From assembly GCA_000004985.1 (NCBI GenBank), contig GG738865.1: 64,000 nucleotides of DNA. The stretch is one strand, 5' to 3'. This DNA comes from Naegleria gruberi (taxonomy: Eukaryota). Made by a program: the position numbers and the translations under genes. Numbering within the stretch: the stretch's first letter is position 1; every line of letters begins with the position of its first letter. The notes under the pieces are model-generated. The model made no database searches and had not been told where the DNA came from. It saw nothing but the letters and a program-made list of their open reading frames with translations. Shown one piece after another: positions 13,361-45,011 of the stretch.

Positions 13361-13409
13361 TTCTGACCGTTACCATTATTAAAATACTCCAAAAAAATAA
13401 CAACAAGGT

Positions 13410-15455
13410 ATGCCTCCACCTCCTCCTTCAACATCTTCATCATCAACACCAAGAGGAAAGGCAATGCGATCTGCTTTTCTACCACCCGAAACCCCATTAT
13501 CAACCAAAATTAGAAAACCAATCAGGGCCACTCCTTCTTCTTCAACTTCCTCATCGACCAATGGCACTAAGCTACAAGAACAAGAACAGCTACAAGACCA
13601 ATGTATTAAAGTGTACATTAGAATTCGTCCGAACGATGATCATGACCAATTACAAATTGAATTTCTCAACAATTCTTCAATTCAAGTCACGTGTAAAAAT
13701 CAAGAAAAGGCAGATACACCAAAAGTATTCCTATTTGATCAGGTTTTGGATGAAAATGTTTCTCAGCAACAAGTTTTTGATTTGATTGGTGTTCCAGTTG
13801 TTGAAGAACTTCTTCAGGGGTTCAATGCTTCCATTTTAGGTTATGGACATACAGGATCTGGTAAAACATTTACAATGGGAACTAATCTTCATGAGATTGC
13901 AGATTCCTTTGAGAGTGGCAATTTGCCTGCTGCTTGTGGTTTATTGCCACGAATTGTTGAAAGGTTGCTAAACAGGAAGAAAGTGGACGAACAATTAAGC
14001 TGCTCCTTATTTGAAATTTATAATGGAGGAGTTTATGATTTATTTGGAGAGGCCAGCAAAAAGTGTAAGGTCAAGTATTCAAACGGTGTGGATGTTGTGA
14101 CCAATGCTAAAAAGAAGCTTATTCATTCACTGTCTGATCTTTCTTCCATTTCGTCTGGTTTAAAAAGGAGACATCAAAGTGCAACTGGACAAAATCTATC
14201 CTCATCAAGATCACACTGCATCTTTAGATTGTTTATCACAACTGCAGACAATACTGAAAGATGCCTAAACATGGTTGACTTGGCTGGATCTGAACGTCAA
14301 AAAACTGCCAACATTCACGCTGATAAAATGTTACTAGATGAAGCAAATTACATTAATACTTCATTGACAGTTTTGAAAAGATGCATTGAAGCAGTCTATA
14401 ATAATCAATCCAATACTGATAAGAAGACACTAGTTCCATACAGGGAAGATAATCTTGCCTTATTGTTGCATTCAACTTTGGAAGGAAATTCAAAAACTTT
14501 CTTTATTGGAAATATTGGAACTGCAAGTGAATCGATATCAACTTTGAATTATGCACAAACGGCAAGAAAGATTAAAAAGATGACTAGCAAGTTGAGTTCA
14601 ATGTTGAAGAAGAAATCAGGAGGATTGTTTGAAGAGGAAATTGAAAAGTTAAAGAAAGAGTTGGAAGAAACTAAGGGTAAATTGGATGAGGAAAGAGATA
14701 GCAAGACCAAACATATTGAAGAACTCTCACAGAAAATTGCATTATTAGAAACTAAACAACAGGAAGCTAATGAAATTCTCAAACAATCGAATACCATTAT
14801 AGAAGAGATGCAAATCAGAGACGATTCTCTGAAAGAAATTTGCTCAGAAAAAGAAGAAATTATTTCAAATCTCTTTGAAGAATTGTCAAAAGCCAGAAAA
14901 GAAAGCGAGCTCTTGGAGAAGGACAATTCAACATTGAAGAGTGAAAATTCAATTCTTTTGGAAGCAATTGAAAATCAATGTGAAATCATTAGACAACGAG
15001 ATAAGGAACATGATTCAGCTTTCCAAAATTTGAAAGAGCAACTAGACGAATATCAAAAACAGTCATCCTCAAAGACTCTTACAATTCAAACTCTGCGAGA
15101 TGAATTGAAAAAAAAGGACAAAATCATACAGAGAAAATCTTCAACTACTGCAGAACAACTTTATCAGACCATTGAAAATTTACTTAAAACAATTGAAGAT
15201 CAAAAGAAGACAATTCACATGTTTTTGAATGGAACGATGGAAGTTGTGGATATTGATAAGGAAGAAGCTCATGATGGTAATTCATGTGATAGTGATGATG
15301 ATGATGAGAAGGTGATGTCTGATTCTCCAGTTGTGAAATCAAACAAACGAAAGGTAATTTCTCCACTCCAAAATATTGTCTATGAATCAACAGATGAAAA
15401 TAATGAACCAGAATGTAAATATTCAAAATCTGATTTATTAGAATATTTAAAATAA
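13410..15455 (+). CDS. Kinesin-like protein, N-terminal motor plus coiled-coil stalk (divergent/orphan family)
   Basis: Motor motifs IKVYIRIRP, GYGHTGSGKTFTMG (P-loop), SSRSHCIF (switch I) and VDLAGSERQ (switch II), then about 250 aa of coiled coil. Stop TAA at 15453..15455. Confidence 0.9.
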   Translation: MPPPPPSTSSSSTPRGKAMRSAFLPPETPLSTKIRKPIRATPSSSTSSSTNGTKLQEQEQLQDQCIKVYIRIRPNDDHDQLQIEFLNNSSIQVTCKNQEKADTPKVFLFDQVLDENVSQQQVFDLIGVPVVEELLQGFNASILGYGHTGSGKTFTMGTNLHEIADSFESGNLPAACGLLPRIVERLLNRKKVDEQLSCSLFEIYNGGVYDLFGEASKKCKVKYSNGVDVVTNAKKKLIHSLSDLSSISSGLKRRHQSATGQNLSSSRSHCIFRLFITTADNTERCLNMVDLAGSERQKTANIHADKMLLDEANYINTSLTVLKRCIEAVYNNQSNTDKKTLVPYREDNLALLLHSTLEGNSKTFFIGNIGTASESISTLNYAQTARKIKKMTSKLSSMLKKKSGGLFEEEIEKLKKELEETKGKLDEERDSKTKHIEELSQKIALLETKQQEANEILKQSNTIIEEMQIRDDSLKEICSEKEEIISNLFEELSKARKESELLEKDNSTLKSENSILLEAIENQCEIIRQRDKEHDSAFQNLKEQLDEYQKQSSSKTLTIQTLRDELKKKDKIIQRKSSTTAEQLYQTIENLLKTIEDQKKTIHMFLNGTMEVVDIDKEEAHDGNSCDSDDDDEKVMSDSPVVKSNKRKVISPLQNIVYESTDENNEPECKYSKSDLLEYLK

Positions 15456-15458
15456 AAA

Positions 15459-16529
15459 ATGGGAAATAGTCAACCAAGTAGAAATTTCACAAAAAATCAA
15501 TTAACAACACCAGTTTCCATTCCGATATTGTTTCTTATCGGAGATAAATCAAGTGGAAAGACGCAAACTATTCTTTCATATAACCACAGTTTCGAATTAA
15601 ACAGACGAACCCGACATTTAATTATTGAACTTTCGCGATGCATTCTTGGTTATGAAGCTCATCAAATTTCCAAGATTGACGAAAAACATTACAAAAGCAT
15701 TGCAAAAAAGTTAAAAAAAACTTGGAATTCCAAAAAGGAAAATTCTTTAAAATTCAACGCTGAAAATTTTAAAAGAAATTTAAATTATTTTGAAATTTCA
15801 ATTGAAAAACTTTTGGAAATTCTTGAAAAAATTGTAAAGGACGAATTTAGTACTGAATTGACCAATTCAGAAATTCAAATTATTGAACAAGCTCAACTAT
15901 TAATTCATCCATTTGCTTATTTCCTGGAAAATTGGTCAATTGGAACACAAACTAATCAATTAGTTGAATTATGTGCAATTCCAAGATCGAAATTATCACT
16001 TGATTCAGAAACATTTTCATGGATGAAAGAAAGAGAAAATTCTGTCGTTTTGGTTTTCATTTCATTGATTGGATGGTTGGATGAAACAGAGTATAATTTT
16101 CACAATTTTGATGAGATTGGAAAGGTGCTTGGACACGTTTCGAATAAGAAATTCGAATTTGTTTTTACAAAACCAGATCTGTTGTGGAAAATTCTGGCAA
16201 AAGGAGTGAAATATAAACATCAGGTGAAAGATACAAGAGCAGAGTTATTGGATATGGAAACTAAATACGGATTCGATCGAATAGTTAGCTCAATAATTTC
16301 AAAATACGAAACTGAACTACTGGCAGAATGCAATGATGCACAGAAACCTTTCAACTATCACATAGCAAGAACCAATTCATTGGACGAAATCTCAAAAGTG
16401 ATTGAAAGTGCCACTTCTGAATTTTCTCAATTTATTTCACCATTTATTATTCGAAAGACTTTATTCCAACCAGCACATTCCAATCAATTATTCTATTCAG
16501 ATCTATTAATATTGTGCATCTACCCTTAA
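15459..16529 (+). CDS. Divergent G-protein alpha-subunit-like protein with degenerate GTPase motifs
   Basis: MGNSQPS fits the N-myristoylation pattern MGxxxS. P-loop LFLIGDKSSGKTQTI. Overall G-alpha layout, but DVGGQR is replaced by LCAIPRSK and NKKD by TKPD (VVLVFISL..FEFVFTKPDLLWKIL). The ATG lies 3 nt after the kinesin stop. Confidence 0.55.
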   Translation: MGNSQPSRNFTKNQLTTPVSIPILFLIGDKSSGKTQTILSYNHSFELNRRTRHLIIELSRCILGYEAHQISKIDEKHYKSIAKKLKKTWNSKKENSLKFNAENFKRNLNYFEISIEKLLEILEKIVKDEFSTELTNSEIQIIEQAQLLIHPFAYFLENWSIGTQTNQLVELCAIPRSKLSLDSETFSWMKERENSVVLVFISLIGWLDETEYNFHNFDEIGKVLGHVSNKKFEFVFTKPDLLWKILAKGVKYKHQVKDTRAELLDMETKYGFDRIVSSIISKYETELLAECNDAQKPFNYHIARTNSLDEISKVIESATSEFSQFISPFIIRKTLFQPAHSNQLFYSDLLILCIYP

Positions 16530-16883: not shown

Positions 16884-19162
16884 ATGAAGTGGTTCTCTAC
16901 TACACATGTGTTTTGTTTGTTGTTGATTTTGTTGGTAGTGGTAGAAAGTGAGTTGACAATTCTGTCAAGCGAAGATTTGGCATTTGACAGTTCCAGGAGT
17001 AATCAGAGTGTTATTGAAAGGAAATTATTATCAATTGACGAAAATATAAAGAGAATCAATATTTCTAACACAAATTTCCTTCAAAATTTAGCAAATGACA
17101 ATTGGCAGGTAATCGCATCAACTCAATCACTAGTAATTGTTAGTTTACAGAATTTAACAACCATTGATGATGTTCTTCTACTCGCATCACGTAAACTAAT
17201 TAAAATTGGTGTACACACTATTATTGGAATAGACATTAGGTTTGTGGAGACGAAACTTCAACTAAACTCGACGAAACACTTCTACAAGACTGAGAGAATG
17301 GACAGAACATCTTCTGATTGTTGGATGGGAAATGTTTTCGAATATTTCGATGTTGTAATTTCAAGTGATTTGTTTCTTCCAATTCTCATAAGACAAAATC
17401 GAGATTGTTATGTCACAACCCCAGTGTTTAGAACATTAGATTATCAAGATTTGAGTTTAGTTTCATTTTCTCCCTTTGAAATAGTAATAGCAAACTCAAA
17501 AGCATCATTTAATGATCTTGTCACCTATCAATATGAAATAATGAACGACATGTTCAAAAATTTACAAATTTCACAACAAGTTTGTGAATCAACGACAAGT
17601 TCATACAAGGAACATGATTATTCAGTGTTGAGAATTGAACAATTTTTCACAAATATTTCAGCGGATGATTTTTTATTTATTGTGGAATATCATGCGTTGG
17701 ATAATTGGACACTAAATCAAACATTTACTAATTTGGCATTTGAAATGGTGTTAAATAGAACTGGATATAGTGTTGATAAGCTCAATTCTATGAAAAGATC
17801 ATTCTTTCCCACAAAATGTTACTCCTGTCTAACGTCATCTTGTATGTGGGAAGACAGAGCTAGTCCAGTAGCTTCAAATGCAGATGGTGTCAGTATTGGA
17901 GGTGGTATCTCTCTATTCATTGCATTATTTTTCTATTTTCCTTCTTTAATTCTATTCAGAAACAGAGAATCGGTCAAGATTCGTCTCATTGTTCCATACG
18001 TTTCGGTTCTGAGTCCAGTTTTCATCATGTTGATTCAGATTTTTCAACTTATCAAGCCGTGTTATTTGCTCTATCAGATTGCTGTTAATTTTCTATCCTG
18101 TTGGTCGATTATCATTTATTTTTTGATTTGTATTCGATTCGTCTTGTTGAGAAATATTTATACGCTAGTTCTGTATCTTAATGAGAGACATATCAAGATT
18201 TTAAAATGGTTAGTGAGTAAGAGAGTTGCAAGTATTGGATCCTTTCTGATGGGTGTGTTGATTGGATGTTTAGTTTCCCTCGTTCCCCTTGTTGGATTTT
18301 ATGATGTAAGTTGTTATTCGAATCCCAAACTAAACATCTTCTTTGAAAATAGGAATTCTTTGGAAATCGTGCTGCCATACAATGTGCTTTCATCACCTTT
18401 GGAATCACTGTAGCCATTGCAACATTATCATTACTAGCACTTGTCATTCATTTCCTCTTCAAGATTCCAATAATTTGGAGAAGAGGTCTATTATATATTC
18501 TATTCTTTGATGATCCATTTCAAATCAAGTTTGATATTTTATTCTTCTCACTCAATACTATAGTCATTACAGTTTATTTATTCACAGAGGCGAATCAGAA
18601 TTATGTTTACAGTATTTTTGCACCACTCCTATCTCACAATATTGGAATGTTGTATAGAGGAGGTTTAGTTTTGATTATTGAATGGTTTAAAACGATTTAT
18701 TTTAGAAAACAACTGAATATGACTGAGAAGGAGAAAGTGGACGAATTGGTTCTTCATTTGGAAAATCCAGAATTCTTCAATTTAATGAAGGAATTTGTTG
18801 CAAAGGAAACTTCACTTGAGAACTTGAAATTTTACGAAGAATTGAAACAAATAGAAAGAATGAGTCAATCTGACAAGAATCCCAAAATCAGTCACGAAGA
18901 AATGATTCGAATAAGGGACAAGTACTTTAAAGAAAATGTTCTATACGAATTGAATATTGGAGGCCAAACTAAGCAATCGTTTCACAATCTCGTAGCAACA
19001 GCTGCAAATCCAAATGAAGAAGTTCGCCTTAAAGATTTGAAATTCATTCTCGATGAAGAATTGATGGGAAATTTGAGTGATGCCTATTTGAGATTGAAAC
19101 AACAACCAGGTTTTAAGAGATGGAAAGTAGCTCACAATATTTATATTGAGGAAAAGGAATAG
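16884..19162 (+). CDS. Seven-transmembrane receptor-like protein with C-terminal RGS domain (7TM-RGS)
   Basis: Exons 16884..18305 and 18353..19162 (47-nt intron GTAAGT..AATAG, phase 0). Signal peptide MKWFSTTHVFCLLLILLVVVES, an ectodomain of about 330 aa, and seven hydrophobic segments. RGS box LENPEFFNLMKEFVAKETSLENLKFYEELKQ..IRDKYFKENVLYELNIG..SDAYLRLKQQPGFKRW. Confidence 0.8.
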
Positions 19163-37243: not shown

Positions 37244-38412
37244 ATGTTCAATATTCCAAATAATATTACTGATATTCGTTCTTTGTTTACCTATGCAATC
37301 GGAACACTTTCTATTGGCTCCATTGTCGCAGCTGCATCCCTTTCTTACAAACACTTTTTTACATGGTCCTTGAATAAGCAAGACAAAAATCCAAATGTTT
37401 GTGTGTTGAGGCTTGCTGGTTTAACTCCAAGAAAGCTGGAGATTGTGGACAGAGAAACACAAGTAACCTTGTATATTGCAAATGAAACCAAGGAGATTAG
37501 AATAGTGGACAATTTTAAGGGCTCTCTCTTTTTCAAAGTGTATGGTAAATCTGACATTCCATATATTCATATATTACCAATTCGGTCTATGTCAATACTA
37601 GAGATAGACTTGGTGTTTCTGATAGTTTACTTGAAAAGATTGATGCCAAAATGGAAAAATTGCAATATTTCTCTATTTTATTCACTGGAGGAAAAGGTTG
37701 TGGAAAGAGTATGATGATTGTTTGCTTTATTATGTTCTTCATTGAAATGGGATATGAACTTAAAGTTTCTGAACACAGATCACCAAAGGAGGCATTTGTT
37801 ACAGCAGGAACTGATGATCATGTCACAACAAAATTTCAAGTTGCCAGATTGGAGAAGAAGATCAATAACAAAACTATTGTATTAGAATTGATTGACTCTC
37901 CAGGAATTGAAAAGAGTTACAAGGGTCAACCTTGGTATGGAGACATGAAGGAAACATTCAAGAAAATAATGGATGGTCAAGTGAGAGCCAACTCTTGTGT
38001 TTTCGAAGAAAGAAGGCATACTCTCAATTCAACTAATCCAGATGAAAACATTCCAAAACCAATGTTAGCACTTGTTTGTTCAAACCAAGCATCAGTTGAA
38101 TCTGGAAATGCCAACGATCCATTATTGAACGTCCTGACGAAACAATTACAAAAGAGGGCCTTCTCTGTTTCTACCAAAATTGACCAATCTATGGAAAAGG
38201 ATGATAAGAAAACAACAGTGTTAAAGTTCAATAATGGAAAATTTGAAGAAGTTTTGAATGATATTCGTTGTGTTGGTGATCAGAATGATTTACAATTCTT
38301 TTCACTTACAAAAGAAACCTATTTCAAATTTAAAGATTGTGATGATATTATCAAGTTGCACACTGCCAGATTCATTCACAGTATTCTTGATATGTATAAC
38401 AAAAATTGCTAA
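37244..38412 (+). CDS. Membrane-anchored P-loop GTPase (TRAFAC class, AIG1/septin-like; family uncertain)
   Basis: Exons 37244..37544 and 37604..38412 (59-nt intron GTAAAT..TAGAG, phase 1). N-terminal TM LFTYAIGTLSIGSIVAAASL. G1 FTGGKGCGKS, G3 LIDSPG, G4 STKIDQ. Confidence 0.65.
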
Positions 38413-38554: not shown

Positions 38555-40092
<1,538 letters not shown>

Positions 40093-40396
40093 AAACATCA
40101 TGTTTAAAAATCTTTACAAAAATGTCCAAGCACTTCTTAACAAGTTGATTCATTACTCTTATCAAGTACTCCACTCCAGTAATTCCTTAATTGTCGGCCA
40201 GCTTAGAGGTTCATTTTCAGTGTGTAGATAACCTCCTTTAGATCTGCAGTAGATCTTTGCTCAATAAGGGCATCAGAAATGAGAGAATAAGGAATAAGGA
40301 TGGACTCCTTTATGGACAATTACGAAAAGATCATCTTTGGTTATTTCACATTGTTAATGTGTTGTTATATGAAATTGTGACAAAATTGTTTTTTAT

Positions 40397-41152
40397 TCAA
40401 GCAATAAGCCCTTGACTTTGCTTCCACTTTTGACCGTGAGAAGCTACTTGTGTTCTTGATCGTGTCTTGACATACTTTTCAGCAATGAGTTTCCAATTGT
40501 TACCACATGCCTCAAGACCTTCGAGGAAACGTTGATGTTCTTCCTCTGTCCACCATCCCTTATGACTACCATTCTTATTCTTGGCAGACAAATCACCCTT
40601 CACACTCGACTTGAGTCTCAGCTTACCAATCTTTTGTTTCGAGTAATTGTTAGCAATGTCAACTTCTTCATCGTCACCTTCAGATTCTTCACTTGGTGTC
40701 GTGGTATTTTGTTTGTTTCCTCTCTTAATACATGCAGAAGCAACCTTCTTGAGCACTTCAACATTTGGACATGTTGTTGATGAGACACTGGCAGTTGTTG
40801 TCGTTATGGTTGGATTCTTCTTCTGGAGCTCTTCCTTACTACTACTTGTCATTGTGGTTTCACTACTAGAAACACCACTCGAATGATGATCGTTGAATTG
40901 ACTAGGGGATGATGAATTACTACTTTTCACATCTGTGCCAATAATTGAGACATTGGAAGAATGGGAAAATCCAGATTCATCCATCAATACATTACTATTT
41001 GGAACGTTTCTAACTGGGCTCAATACAGGTGGTGCTGTAGTTGTAGTGGCTGTAATTGTTTTACAGGCAATTGGCACTGCACATGTCACTATCTGCTGAC
41101 TTGTGGCATGATTAAAAGCAACAATTCTTCCAGTAGTTGGGGAGGTATTCAA
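40397..41152 (-). CDS. Single-repeat Myb/SANT DNA-binding protein (SHAQKYF-like class), C-terminal part
   Basis: The C-terminal KGWWTEEEHQRFLEGLEACGNNWKLIAEKYVKTRSRTQVASHGQKWKQ is a Myb-like repeat. The ORF is open upstream to 41152 with no ATG until 40982..40984. It is in frame with ORF 41162..41776 across a single TAA. Confidence 0.75.
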   Translation of the reverse strand: MNTSPTTGRIVAFNHATSQQIVTCAVPIACKTITATTTTAPPVLSPVRNVPNSNVLMDESGFSHSSNVSIIGTDVKSSNSSSPSQFNDHHSSGVSSSETTMTSSSKEELQKKNPTITTTTASVSSTTCPNVEVLKKVASACIKRGNKQNTTTPSEESEGDDEEVDIANNYSKQKIGKLRLKSSVKGDLSAKNKNGSHKGWWTEEEHQRFLEGLEACGNNWKLIAEKYVKTRSRTQVASHGQKWKQSQGLIA

Positions 41153-41157
41153 AAGTG

Positions 41158-41179
41158 GGTGTTAAAGTGGTGTTAAAGT
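41158..41179. repeat. Perfect 11-bp tandem duplication (ggtgttaaagt x2)
   Basis: Read directly: 41158..41168 equals 41169..41179. The in-frame TAA (41162..41164, minus strand) lies inside the first copy. Confidence 0.95.
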
Positions 41180-41776
41180 TGGTGGTGGACTATTCACATG
41201 ATCCACTACTTTAGAGTTGGTTGTAAAATAATTTGGCTTGTTTACAGTACCTTCCCAAATGGAGTTTTCTCGATATAGTTGTTGAGGTGCTTGATGGGTT
41301 GGATAAACGGAGAATAACGAGGAGTAACGATTGCCAACAACGACATGATGACTCGTAGACGATGATGCAACAACAGGCATTATTGATTGGCTTGTGGTGG
41401 TGGAGTGAGAAAGGGATGGGAGTTGTTGTGGATGATGTTGCATCATCTGTGGTGGTTGTGTTGAAGAATAATTATTATTACATGATGAGGATTGACTGGT
41501 AGTAGGAATGGCTGTACAGGAAATGGTATTAGAGAAGGCATGTGTTGGTCTGGTTAACAAATTAGGATAGTTTGGTGTTGTTGTGGTTGCAGGATATATA
41601 TCTGAAAAGAGTGAAGAAATGGAAGGTAATTGAATAGTGGCAGAACTATTAGTACTGCTGCCACTGTCTTTTGTCAAATGATTCATTGGCTGAATGTATT
41701 GTTGTTGTTGTTGGCTTGCACTCATGAGTGGATTGGTGGTCATAGTATTCATTCTTGTCATGTTATCTGCCATCAT
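41162..41776 (-). CDS. Gln/Ser/Thr-rich ORF, probable N-terminal part of the Myb gene (or a separate low-complexity protein)
   Basis: ATG-initiated, 204 codons. It has the same frame and composition as the region downstream of its TAA stop. Confidence 0.5.
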   Translation of the reverse strand: MMADNMTRMNTMTTNPLMSASQQQQQYIQPMNHLTKDSGSSTNSSATIQLPSISSLFSDIYPATTTTPNYPNLLTRPTHAFSNTISCTAIPTTSQSSSCNNNYSSTQPPQMMQHHPQQLPSLSHSTTTSQSIMPVVASSSTSHHVVVGNRYSSLFSVYPTHQAPQQLYRENSIWEGTVNKPNYFTTNSKVVDHVNSPPPTLTPL

Positions 41777-41918
41777 GATGATTTAATTCGTATGTTCGGT
41801 ATTATCTTTGAAATAATGATATTGCTGCTGCTATTGTGTCAGAGTAACAAAATAGATCGAATATCGAACCTAGTTGTGTGTGTTGTTTTTTTTGTTGTGT
41901 TGCTGAAGATTTAAATGC

Positions 41919-42194
41919 TTAGTAATCTTGTGTGTGGTTAGCTGTTTGGCGATTTTGGTGCGTTGTTCTTTTGTTGTTCTTTTGACGCAACGCAAAATTG
42001 CTGTCGATTTTTGCATTTTTCACTTTTTGCTTGGAAGAGAATTGTGATAGCTCTTGGTTGGCCATGAGTGAAATGAAAACGCGAGTATTTTGGAGTTTTT
42101 CTGGCCAATCAGAAAAGAGACAGATGATGAGAGGAACTAGCATCGCAACCAAAACATACTTGAGAATGTGATTGAATTGGTCACTAATAAGCAT
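41919..42194 (-). CDS. Questionable small ORF (91 aa, one hydrophobic segment plus basic tail)
   Basis: ATG ORF inside the long ORF-poor interval upstream of the Myb gene. No homology recognised. It could be a uORF in the 5' leader or a chance ORF. Confidence 0.15.
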   Translation of the reverse strand: MLISDQFNHILKYVLVAMLVPLIICLFSDWPEKLQNTRVFISLMANQELSQFSSKQKVKNAKIDSNFALRQKNNKRTTHQNRQTANHTQDY

Positions 42195-43314
42195 GTTTAA
42201 TTATCCATAGTTTCCATTTGCTGTGGTGACACTACCATGTCACTCAAAGATCTAATATCAGCAAATGGAATGCATCATGTTGCATTGATACATCCTCTTC
42301 TTGAATAAAATCTATCACTATTTCTGTACTGTATAAGAAGATCAATGTCAATGTGAAATAGAGGTTCCCAAAATCAAGTCACACCATCAGTGTCTTTAAG
42401 GAGTTGTGAAATTACAGTGTTTCACACAACACCAACCCACTGAAAAGCATGGTATTACAATTTTCGATAGATAGCTCTATTTTGGGTTGGTACACAAAGC
42501 TTAATCCTTATTGTTGTTTTTACCGTTGATTCTGGGTTGAAAACAGCAAAAATCGCGAATTCCTTCCTAATCGGTAAGTGGATTGTTGAATCTTGCCCTT
42601 GACTACAGTGAATTATTATCTTGGCTATCTTGTAAATATCAACAGCCCATTCCCAACGTCACTGTATCTAACAGACCAGTGAGAATTGGCTCTTTCTGGA
42701 TAATGGTCCAGTAATCAAATCTATTGAGGATGGTCCGTAAATTCCAACAACCATACGGTTGTATCAATGATTTGTGAACAAACAATCTAAGGTTCATATT
42801 GAGTAAAATCACTACAGTCCTATCTGAAATCTTTCTAAATGCAGACTGATATCGTTAATACAATTAATACAATGCAATTTCAAGGGCTCAAGGGTGGTAC
42901 CTCATTGCAGATAAGTGGTTGTGAGGATTACTCAACGAGCACACACACCCTTACTCACTTAGTACTCACTTCATTCAACAATTTGATCATTGTGTTTGTT
43001 GAGCTGATGATAATCTAGTATCCTCTTTTTACGTAATTATTGAAACATAGTTATTCCAACTAAATATTCCACTATTACATTAATAATATTACTCAATATT
43101 ACACCTTACTAGAGGTTTTAACAATGTGAGGTTGGTTAAAAACTGTAAATTACACATGTTAAAAAAACCTAAAATAGATTGATTATCATCACTAGAACGT
43201 ACTGTTAGGAAAATTCGAGATAGTAACCTCTCATTATTGCAAAGTGAATGTTGAATTACCAACGTAACTATAATCAACTATAATAACCATAATTACATGT
43301 TACTATTATTATAA

Positions 43315-44811
43315 TCAGAGTTGATATTCGGAAAATTCAAAACTGAATGGCTCCTTTTCAACAATCATTGAGCCAATTTCATCATTGTCAAGTAATGATT
43401 CGTAACATACTGAAAGACAACAAATACTCTTCAATTTATCCTTAGCACTGTTGAAAAAGATGGATGTGTAATAATTCTTGAAATTTTTCCTCTCGTTTGA
43501 TTTCTTCCACAACCTGACCTTCTTTAATACATGTCTCTCAATGGTATTCTCAATGAGGAGAGGAGATCCCACCATGAGGGAGTGGGAACTAGATGACACA
43601 CATCCATTGTATAAATAGTACAGTACTCTCATGGTGTGAATCAATATGAAATCAATGCTCAATAGATTATACTTGTCCAATTCATAAATCCACCTCGAAA
43701 CGATATGATTCAATACTTTAAAGTTTTTCTTTGGAGTTGGCTCGAGAGGTTGAGGGATTTCAAAATAGTTTGTATTCGATTGTTTGATAAATTTGGGTTG
43801 AATCCACATTGGTTTGAATCTGCCTTCAAATGTTGATATTAAAGACTTGGTTGCTCGTTTCATTCTAATCTTTTTCCAAATATCTGTTATGATTTCTTCC
43901 TCATTGCCACTACTGCCATTACTTCCACTTGATTCTTCTTCATCTTCGCTATCTTGTCTATTTGTATCAATTGTCTTCTTTTTGGCATTTGATAAAAAAT
44001 TCCAATCTTTTCTTTGGTCAACTGGAGAAGAATCAGTACTATTGGGAAAATTTAGTGTTTTTCTTCCTTTTTGAAAAGTTTCTGAATGGATAATCGTCCA
44101 ACAATTATCCTTTCGCTTTGACAATAGTATTGAATCCATTTTCAGTTCGACATCATTCATTGAAAAGAACCAATTTGACATGGTAATTTCACTCCAATCA
44201 CAACAAACTCCCTTCTTTAGTGCACTTCTAAAATCAATTTGTAAAAATTGAGGAATTGGGGCTGAAAATTGGGTTCTTTTCAATCCTCTTATCCAATTAG
44301 GTTCCGTAAAAAAAGACTTTTTATCCACCAACAAGGAACACTTATTAATTGAAAATAGGTAATTTGAAATCATGAGAGTGGCCTGTCTCCTCGTTCTCAG
44401 TTTTGTTTGACTTTTCAAATAAATTTCCAATTGTCTTTGTAAATTTAATTTAAATTCCTCCCTCAATTTAATATCCTCCAATGAGAGGGAATAATTCGGA
44501 TCATCATGAAATCTTTCATTTTGCTCACGATAATTAATTGATTTGTTATAGATAAACACCTGATTGGTGGGCACTAATTCCGAAATATAATTCCAAATAT
44601 TATCAGATAGATAGGGCCACAGAGAGTGAATATCATCCCTATTGATTTTATCATACCATTTATGACAGACAAGACTTGATTGAATTAAAATGGATGGTAG
44701 TGGTAGATAACTCAAAATACTATTGAATAATTCATCAATTTCAAATAAATGGTGCCAAAAGTTTTCCGAAAGGGTCAATTTTGTGGATAAACTTTTTGTC
44801 AAGTTTTTCAT
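43315..44811 (-). CDS. F-box domain protein
   Basis: The track start at 44826 is TTG; the first ATG is at 44809..44811. N-terminal F-box-like LFEIDELFNSILSYLPLPSILIQSSLVCHKWYDKINRDDIHSLW. The remainder is unrecognised. Confidence 0.65.
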   Translation of the reverse strand: MKNLTKSLSTKLTLSENFWHHLFEIDELFNSILSYLPLPSILIQSSLVCHKWYDKINRDDIHSLWPYLSDNIWNYISELVPTNQVFIYNKSINYREQNERFHDDPNYSLSLEDIKLREEFKLNLQRQLEIYLKSQTKLRTRRQATLMISNYLFSINKCSLLVDKKSFFTEPNWIRGLKRTQFSAPIPQFLQIDFRSALKKGVCCDWSEITMSNWFFSMNDVELKMDSILLSKRKDNCWTIIHSETFQKGRKTLNFPNSTDSSPVDQRKDWNFLSNAKKKTIDTNRQDSEDEEESSGSNGSSGNEEEIITDIWKKIRMKRATKSLISTFEGRFKPMWIQPKFIKQSNTNYFEIPQPLEPTPKKNFKVLNHIVSRWIYELDKYNLLSIDFILIHTMRVLYYLYNGCVSSSSHSLMVGSPLLIENTIERHVLKKVRLWKKSNERKNFKNYYTSIFFNSAKDKLKSICCLSVCYESLLDNDEIGSMIVEKEPFSFEFSEYQL

Positions 44812-45011
44812 TTTTTTTAATTTCAAAATTAAAATTGAAAATCAAATATGAAATGTCAATGTTTTAGAAAGGCATAGCATGCTAGTGTCAAAAATAAACC
44901 AGAGTTAGAAATCTGTACGCTGGCTGGGTCAAAAATAGCATTTTTCTATAGTAAAGTTAATTAGGTAGCAATGTTATTTGACATAAATAGTTTTTGAATA
45001 ATAAACAAGAA

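Follow-up and report, generated by a model that had tools for sequence, protein, structure and literature searches.

A single in-frame TAA on the minus strand of the Naegleria gruberi NEG-M reference (contig GG738865.1; the window is the whole 64,000-nucleotide stretch of this contig that was analysed) separates a glutamine-, serine- and threonine-rich reading frame from a frame that carries a Myb repeat, and the question raised by this locus is whether the codon parts two genes, is read through, is spliced out, is an error of the assembly or interrupts what was one gene. The comparisons described below favour the last of these, and we regard a recent nonsense allele of one Myb gene in the NEG-M reference as the probable explanation. 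The upstream ORF (41162..41776, minus), which forms the N-terminal part of the gene, had been described in an earlier note on this DNA as ATG-initiated and rich in Gln, Ser and Thr, and so it proved: it starts with the ATG at 41776, runs for 204 codons (204 aa) and ends in the TAA at 41162..41164. The C-terminal part (40397..41161, minus) follows in frame and stays open over 254 sense codons up to a TGA at 40397..40399. That one TAA splits two ORFs of the same frame, as the note had it, is borne out by arithmetic (41164-40397+1 = 768 = 256 x 3, with this lone stop between them), and a recount gave the same 56 sense codons between the TAA and the first ATG past it (40982..40984).

The assignment of a Myb/SANT repeat to the downstream ORF, made earlier from the letters, is upheld by profile searches in which both models score above their cut-offs. 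PF00249 (Myb_DNA-binding; cut-off 24.4 bits) matches at residues 202-247 of the downstream segment with 42.8 bits and an E value of 5.6e-11, TIGR01557 (myb_SHAQKYF; cut-off 29.3 bits) scores 44.1 bits with the downstream part, and among PDB structures a Myb of the SHAQKYF family, 6nvz, matches best (E 2.6e-7). The predicted DNA-binding domain of the SHAQKYF class thus lies at 40421..40558 (minus). Its recognition-helix motif is VASHGQKWKQ, within which the signature SHGQKW is unvaried in five of five Naegleria sequences, as against SHAQKYF in the class.

A search with the joined protein retrieved P0004, a 460-residue protein encoded on an ENA metagenome contig (L001, 2349 bp) that matches window positions 40124..42465 (minus strand) with 97.5% DNA identity over 2.3 kb, flanks included; P0004 and the NEG-M protein are 98% identical. 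The Myb gene of this contig is an uninterrupted 460-codon ORF in which the TAA at 41162..41164 has no counterpart. The upstream NEG-M ORF aligns end to end with P0004 residues 1-207 and the downstream part is collinear with residues 208-460 (one indel of 3 nt and four substitutions), and over the 254 codons after the TAA the comparison of NEG-M with L001 reveals no additional stop or frameshift. The close intact relative is one sequence only, this environmental Naegleria contig. The orthologues at greater distance include C9374_014255 of N. lovaniensis (438 aa) and FDP41_010688 of N. fowleri (501 aa), each a single intronless ORF (1317 and 1506 nt, respectively), and P0007, a JGI metagenome protein of 395 aa that is likewise a single protein. 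These distant orthologues have a low-complexity N-terminal region, as does the NEG-M gene, and share with the NEG-M downstream ORF a near-invariant C-terminal YSKQKIGKLRLK...Myb block. Moreover, an N-terminal LPSI motif of the NEG-M upstream ORF (codons at 41618..41629, minus) recurs in N. lovaniensis and N. fowleri in the protein alignment, with a similar LPPISS in P0007, which ties the upstream ORF to the architecture of the Myb-bearing orthologue family.

The neighbourhood is shared in part. A TTL (tubulin-tyrosine-ligase) gene lies directly downstream and convergent both in the window and in N. lovaniensis; in N. fowleri it lies downstream on the opposite strand with one Ras/Roc gene in between. 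In the synteny comparison (L003 and L004 against window 38556..44841) this Ras/Roc GTPase insertion is found in N. fowleri only; upstream, the place of the N. gruberi F-box ORF is taken in N. lovaniensis and N. fowleri by two Glyco_transf_61 genes.

The continuous ORFs in L001, N. lovaniensis and N. fowleri establish one ancestral gene, and these alignments show one original intronless Myb gene, in which the insertion is derived in NEG-M. The earlier proposal of one original coding region is therefore sustained, by the 460-codon ORF of L001 and by the single-ORF syntenic orthologues. It had been offered alongside the option of two genuinely separate genes, namely a gene for a low-complexity protein, followed by a Myb gene that has a promoter of its own and starts at the ATG at 40982..40984. 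The presence of that ATG 56 codons past the TAA would suit such an arrangement, but four of the four sequences compared (L001, L002, N. lovaniensis and N. fowleri) encode continuous proteins with neither stop nor spacer, the orthologue comparison yielded none with two genes, and in L001 the 56 codons ahead of the ATG are conserved as coding sequence, so that we find two genes here scarcely credible.

What, then, distinguishes the NEG-M gene from its intact relative? The stop lies, as had been noticed, inside an exact 11-bp tandem repeat, GGTGTTAAAGT x2 (minus strand ACTTTAACACC x2), at 41158..41179. Against L001, the lesion (41158..41167, minus; DNA alignment columns 1315-1324) consists of 9 extra nucleotides (41159..41167, CTTTAACAC) and a substitution at 41158; described in another way, 'AA' in L001 is swapped for the second 11-mer in NEG-M, with a net gain of 9 nt. 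The L001 junction, CCACCACCAACTTTAACACCA-ACACTTTTG (PPPTLTPTLLNT), reads CCA CCA CCA ACT TTA ACA CCA ACA CTT TTG (PPPTLTPTLL), and that of NEG-M, longer by 9 nt with the TAA among them, reads CCA CCA CCA ACT TTA ACA CCA CTT TAA CAC CCA CTT TTG. Since 11 mod 3 is 2, the second 11-mer is read out of register and TTTAAC becomes CTT TAA C; since the net change is +9, the two halves stay in frame and deletion of one copy fails to restore the gene. It had been pointed out before that loss of one 11-mer shifts the frame and that an 11-bp duplication alone is insufficient, and both statements hold, the second because the difference from L001 is an exchange of 'AA' for the second 11-mer that brings in the TAA. 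Neither a pure 11-nt duplication nor a 12-nt slippage between CACCAAC repeats reproduced the NEG-M sequence; the lesion needs an 11-nt copy together with loss of AA, or a 9-nt insertion together with a substitution, which is unusual and keeps the frame.

Short perfect tandem duplication is a common type of mutation in this genome. The window contains three perfect tandem duplications with a period of at least 11, where 0.06 are expected, and 15 with a period of at least 8, where 2.3 are expected (100 second-order Markov simulations); over the whole window, tandems with periods of 8-15 exceed expectation about 6-fold. Those clearly within long ORFs have a period of 9 (12786, 32038 and 62966), and those with periods of 8, 10 and 11 are mostly intergenic to ORFs, the 8-mers at 37560 and 13190 being ambiguous. 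The 11-mer at 41158 is a clear exception to this inter-ORF placement, which fits a disruptive role. A second perfect 11-bp tandem, GTTGTTCTTTT x2 (plus strand), lies 800 bp off in the 5' flank of the Myb gene (41962..41983) and is also NEG-M-specific, the first unit in L001 being imperfect and 4 nt longer there. That both 11-bp tandems, lying within 800 bp of each other, depart from L001 may be a hint that this region is prone to slippage or templated repair.

Both halves of the gene bear marks of coding constraint. NEG-M and L001 differ in the coding region by 6 substitutions in 1371 nt and by indels of 6, 3, 9 and 3 nt, and in the flanks by 17 substitutions in 956 nt and by indels of 1, 1, 1, 1, 4, 2, 3, 2 and 1 nt. 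Multiples of 3 account for four of the four coding indels and for one of the nine in the flanks (hypergeometric P for all four coding indels being multiples of 3, 5/715 = 0.007), a pattern which indicates that both halves were kept as coding sequence. Viewed as a pseudogene, the locus has a derived premature stop, the ORFs of the four relatives named above being continuous, and is free of downstream degeneration, with 254 codons still open. The undamaged downstream frame implies either a recent lesion, or one that another allele shelters, or an artefact. Naegleria has been described as mainly heterozygous diploid (PMC9928731), so that the reference may show one of two haplotypes, and the TAA allele may be one of the two.

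The artefactual reading, in which the NEG-M ORF is intact and the second 11-mer is a consensus error of sequencing or assembly, gains from the TAA allele being found nowhere else in the searched collections: these held no second record of it, and two JGI metagenome scans (one with a gapped junction pattern, the other with a 31-mer just downstream) brought up no more alleles. It also accords with the remainder of the gene being perfectly intact, and with a net change that is in frame, so that the lesion has left no other trace. However, a clean 9-nt net difference that makes an exact 22-bp tandem is atypical of base-calling error, and such insertions are rare in Sanger assemblies, of which we take the NEG-M assembly to be one. 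Further, the second NEG-M tandem (41962..41983), which likewise differs from L001, suggests real slippage-type mutations in the lineage. We consequently consider an assembly error unlikely, and less likely than a recent nonsense allele, and infer that the TAA is present in NEG-M DNA and that translation terminates there.

Whether a TAA would in fact be read as a stop can be judged from the window itself, in which 26 of 43 long stop-to-stop ORFs terminate in this codon. One TAA-terminated ORF is exactly EFC45048.1 (3-methylcrotonoyl-CoA carboxylase beta, MCCB), another window ORF is exactly EFC45052.1 (kinesin-6), and conserved ORFs of 597, 1151 and 884 aa contain no internal TAA. TAA as the usual terminator, together with conserved ORFs free of it, shows that the code is the standard one, and the same two observations rule out reassignment of TAA to a sense codon (Gln), as is known from ciliates. 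Programmed or efficient readthrough, giving a full-length Myb protein, had been among the earlier options. Its attractions are that the frame is preserved across the stop, that the downstream region is undecayed and that the stop is followed by C, the hexamer CACCCA agreeing at five of six positions with the readthrough context motif CARYYA. Yet the stop is missing from the closest relative, L001, and from every orthologue, which argues against a conserved recoding site; TAA is the main terminator in the window and the least leaky of the stop codons; and the 120 nt past the stop fold no better than shuffles (z = 0.09). With an incomplete CARYYA context and no stimulatory structure in these 120 nt, the option lacks support, and we hold readthrough to be very improbable.

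Removal of the stop by splicing was approached by enumerating the frame-keeping GT..AG intervals of up to 400 nt that span it, the shortest of which is 102 nt and none of which has a GTAAGT or GTATGT donor. The candidate intervals have 38-44% GC, whereas local introns, found in the TTL gene at ~38757 and 38894 and also at 18306 and 51943, are ~46-57 nt long and AT-rich (23-30% GC in the three measured) with GTAAGT or GTATGT donors; the earlier statement that no AT-rich GT-AG intron of the local type crosses the stop accordingly stands. Read by eye, the TTL-like gene (38556..40092, plus) has its apparent start at the ATG at 38556, followed by two short AT-rich introns (~38757..38803 and ~38894..38941) and then a long exon.

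The public gene model nevertheless contains such an intron. EFC45055.1 (NAEGRDRAFT_48733; 488 aa), whose exon map we reproduced exactly, joins on the minus strand an exon at 44181..43602, an exon at 41601..41251 and an exon at 40932..40397, with an intron of 2000 nt between 43602 and 41601 and an 'intron' of 318 nt at 41250..40933 that skips the TAA, begins GTACTG and ends CACAG, has a GC content of 39% and is coding in L001. The model begins within the neighbouring F-box ORF and leaves out the conserved ATG and N-terminus of the Myb gene. If splicing did proceed in this way, the TAA interval would be removed and an internally deleted Myb protein made, and the 318-nt interval does have GT..AG ends, is divisible by 3 and leaves an open frame on removal. 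But its length, its GC content and its GTACTG donor depart from all that is seen in the local introns, L001 has conserved coding sequence of the ordinary kind over this interval, and the same model also requires the 2000-nt intron to a piece of the F-box ORF at the cost of the conserved ATG and N-terminus; we rate its use in the cell as most unlikely, and judge both introns of EFC45055.1 to be annotation artefacts of an ab initio predictor that refuses internal stops. The F-box ORF itself (43315..44841, minus) has 508 codons and matches PF00646 (E 8.4e-6), its inner piece 43602..44181 being exon 1 of EFC45055.1. The F-box gene and the Myb gene are probably both mis-annotated in the public record.

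Taken together, these observations can be accommodated by one course of events. The locus would be an intronless single-repeat Myb transcription-factor gene of the SHAQKYF class, with a long low-complexity N-terminal region and a C-terminal DNA-binding domain, that acquired a recent, derived insertion in NEG-M, a second copy of the adjacent 11-mer replacing two A's, possibly through slippage or a templated-repair event. The 11-mer would have been copied out of codon register, so creating TAA from TTTAAC, and translation from the normal ATG would end after 204 residues with a product that lacks the Myb domain. The reference allele is thus a probable loss-of-function (null) allele. Exact protein look-ups for the half-products (ATG-started, 204, 203 and 195 aa; TTG-started, 251 aa) returned no record, and a literature search found no paper on this Myb gene or on the metagenome project PRJEB11402. 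More speculatively, the TAA allele could be real and also tolerated or selected, either because unusually efficient readthrough of the TAA still yields full-length Myb protein or because the axenic NEG-M line has lost the Myb factor in adapting to the laboratory. SHAQKYF Mybs are tied to encystation in other amoebae, and truncation of a factor that regulates differentiation or encystment would suit such an adaptation; we think this whole reading very improbable.

The feature is, in our view of the recent nonsense allele, an ordinary gene-disrupting small insertion, of a common kind of mutation and with no new mechanism, and the stop carries no lesson for the genetic code or for recoding. Its main value is for annotation: EFC45055.1 is a chimera of an F-box piece and the Myb gene in which the stop is masked by an invented intron, and the correct description is an intronless Myb gene of the 460-codon type that is interrupted in the reference. 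Users of NEG-M or of EFC45055.1 in comparative genomics should be aware that the reference Myb allele is probably null.

Another pair of long ORFs parted by one in-frame TAA occurs in the window at 15453..15461 (plus). Here a kinesin-motor ORF (13401..15455, plus) ends LEYLK-TAA, and ATG GGA AAT AGT follows three bases on, opening a 356-codon ORF (MGNSQPS...) with a P-loop-like motif, GDKSSGKT. The 356-codon ORF has no Pfam hit, and its 356-aa product is absent as such from the protein collection. The MG start resembles a true N-terminus, so that the pair would seem to be two genes lying 3 nt apart, which raises the question of where the promoter of the 356-codon ORF is located.

Finally, considering known systems, the locus resembles the tobamovirus type of UAG-CARYYA readthrough in that one in-frame stop precedes a frame that stays open and encodes a functional domain, but differs from it in having TAA as the codon, at an unconserved position, with an incomplete context and no stimulatory structure in the 120 nt that follow. 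With the SHAQKYF single-repeat Mybs (Myb1R or 'Myb-like') it shares one Myb/SANT repeat, with a variant of the class signature in the third helix, and the related Naegleria-like proteins P0009 and P0011 carry SHAQKYF-Myb naming from their sources. Unlike that class, the NEG-M gene reads SHGQKW in place of SHAQKY(F), places the domain at the extreme C-terminus behind ~400 low-complexity residues, and has it severed from the start codon by the premature stop. In contrast to frameshift-type cases, the net change in NEG-M is in frame (+9) and the gene is broken by a stop inside the insert, and in contrast to a pure tandem duplication the event entailed loss of 'AA'. The likeness lies with strain-specific tandem-indel nonsense alleles and young unitary pseudogenes, products of replication slippage or templated repair, which have, as here, a derived stop within an exact short repeat, intact close and distant relatives and a coding sequence still free of secondary decay.
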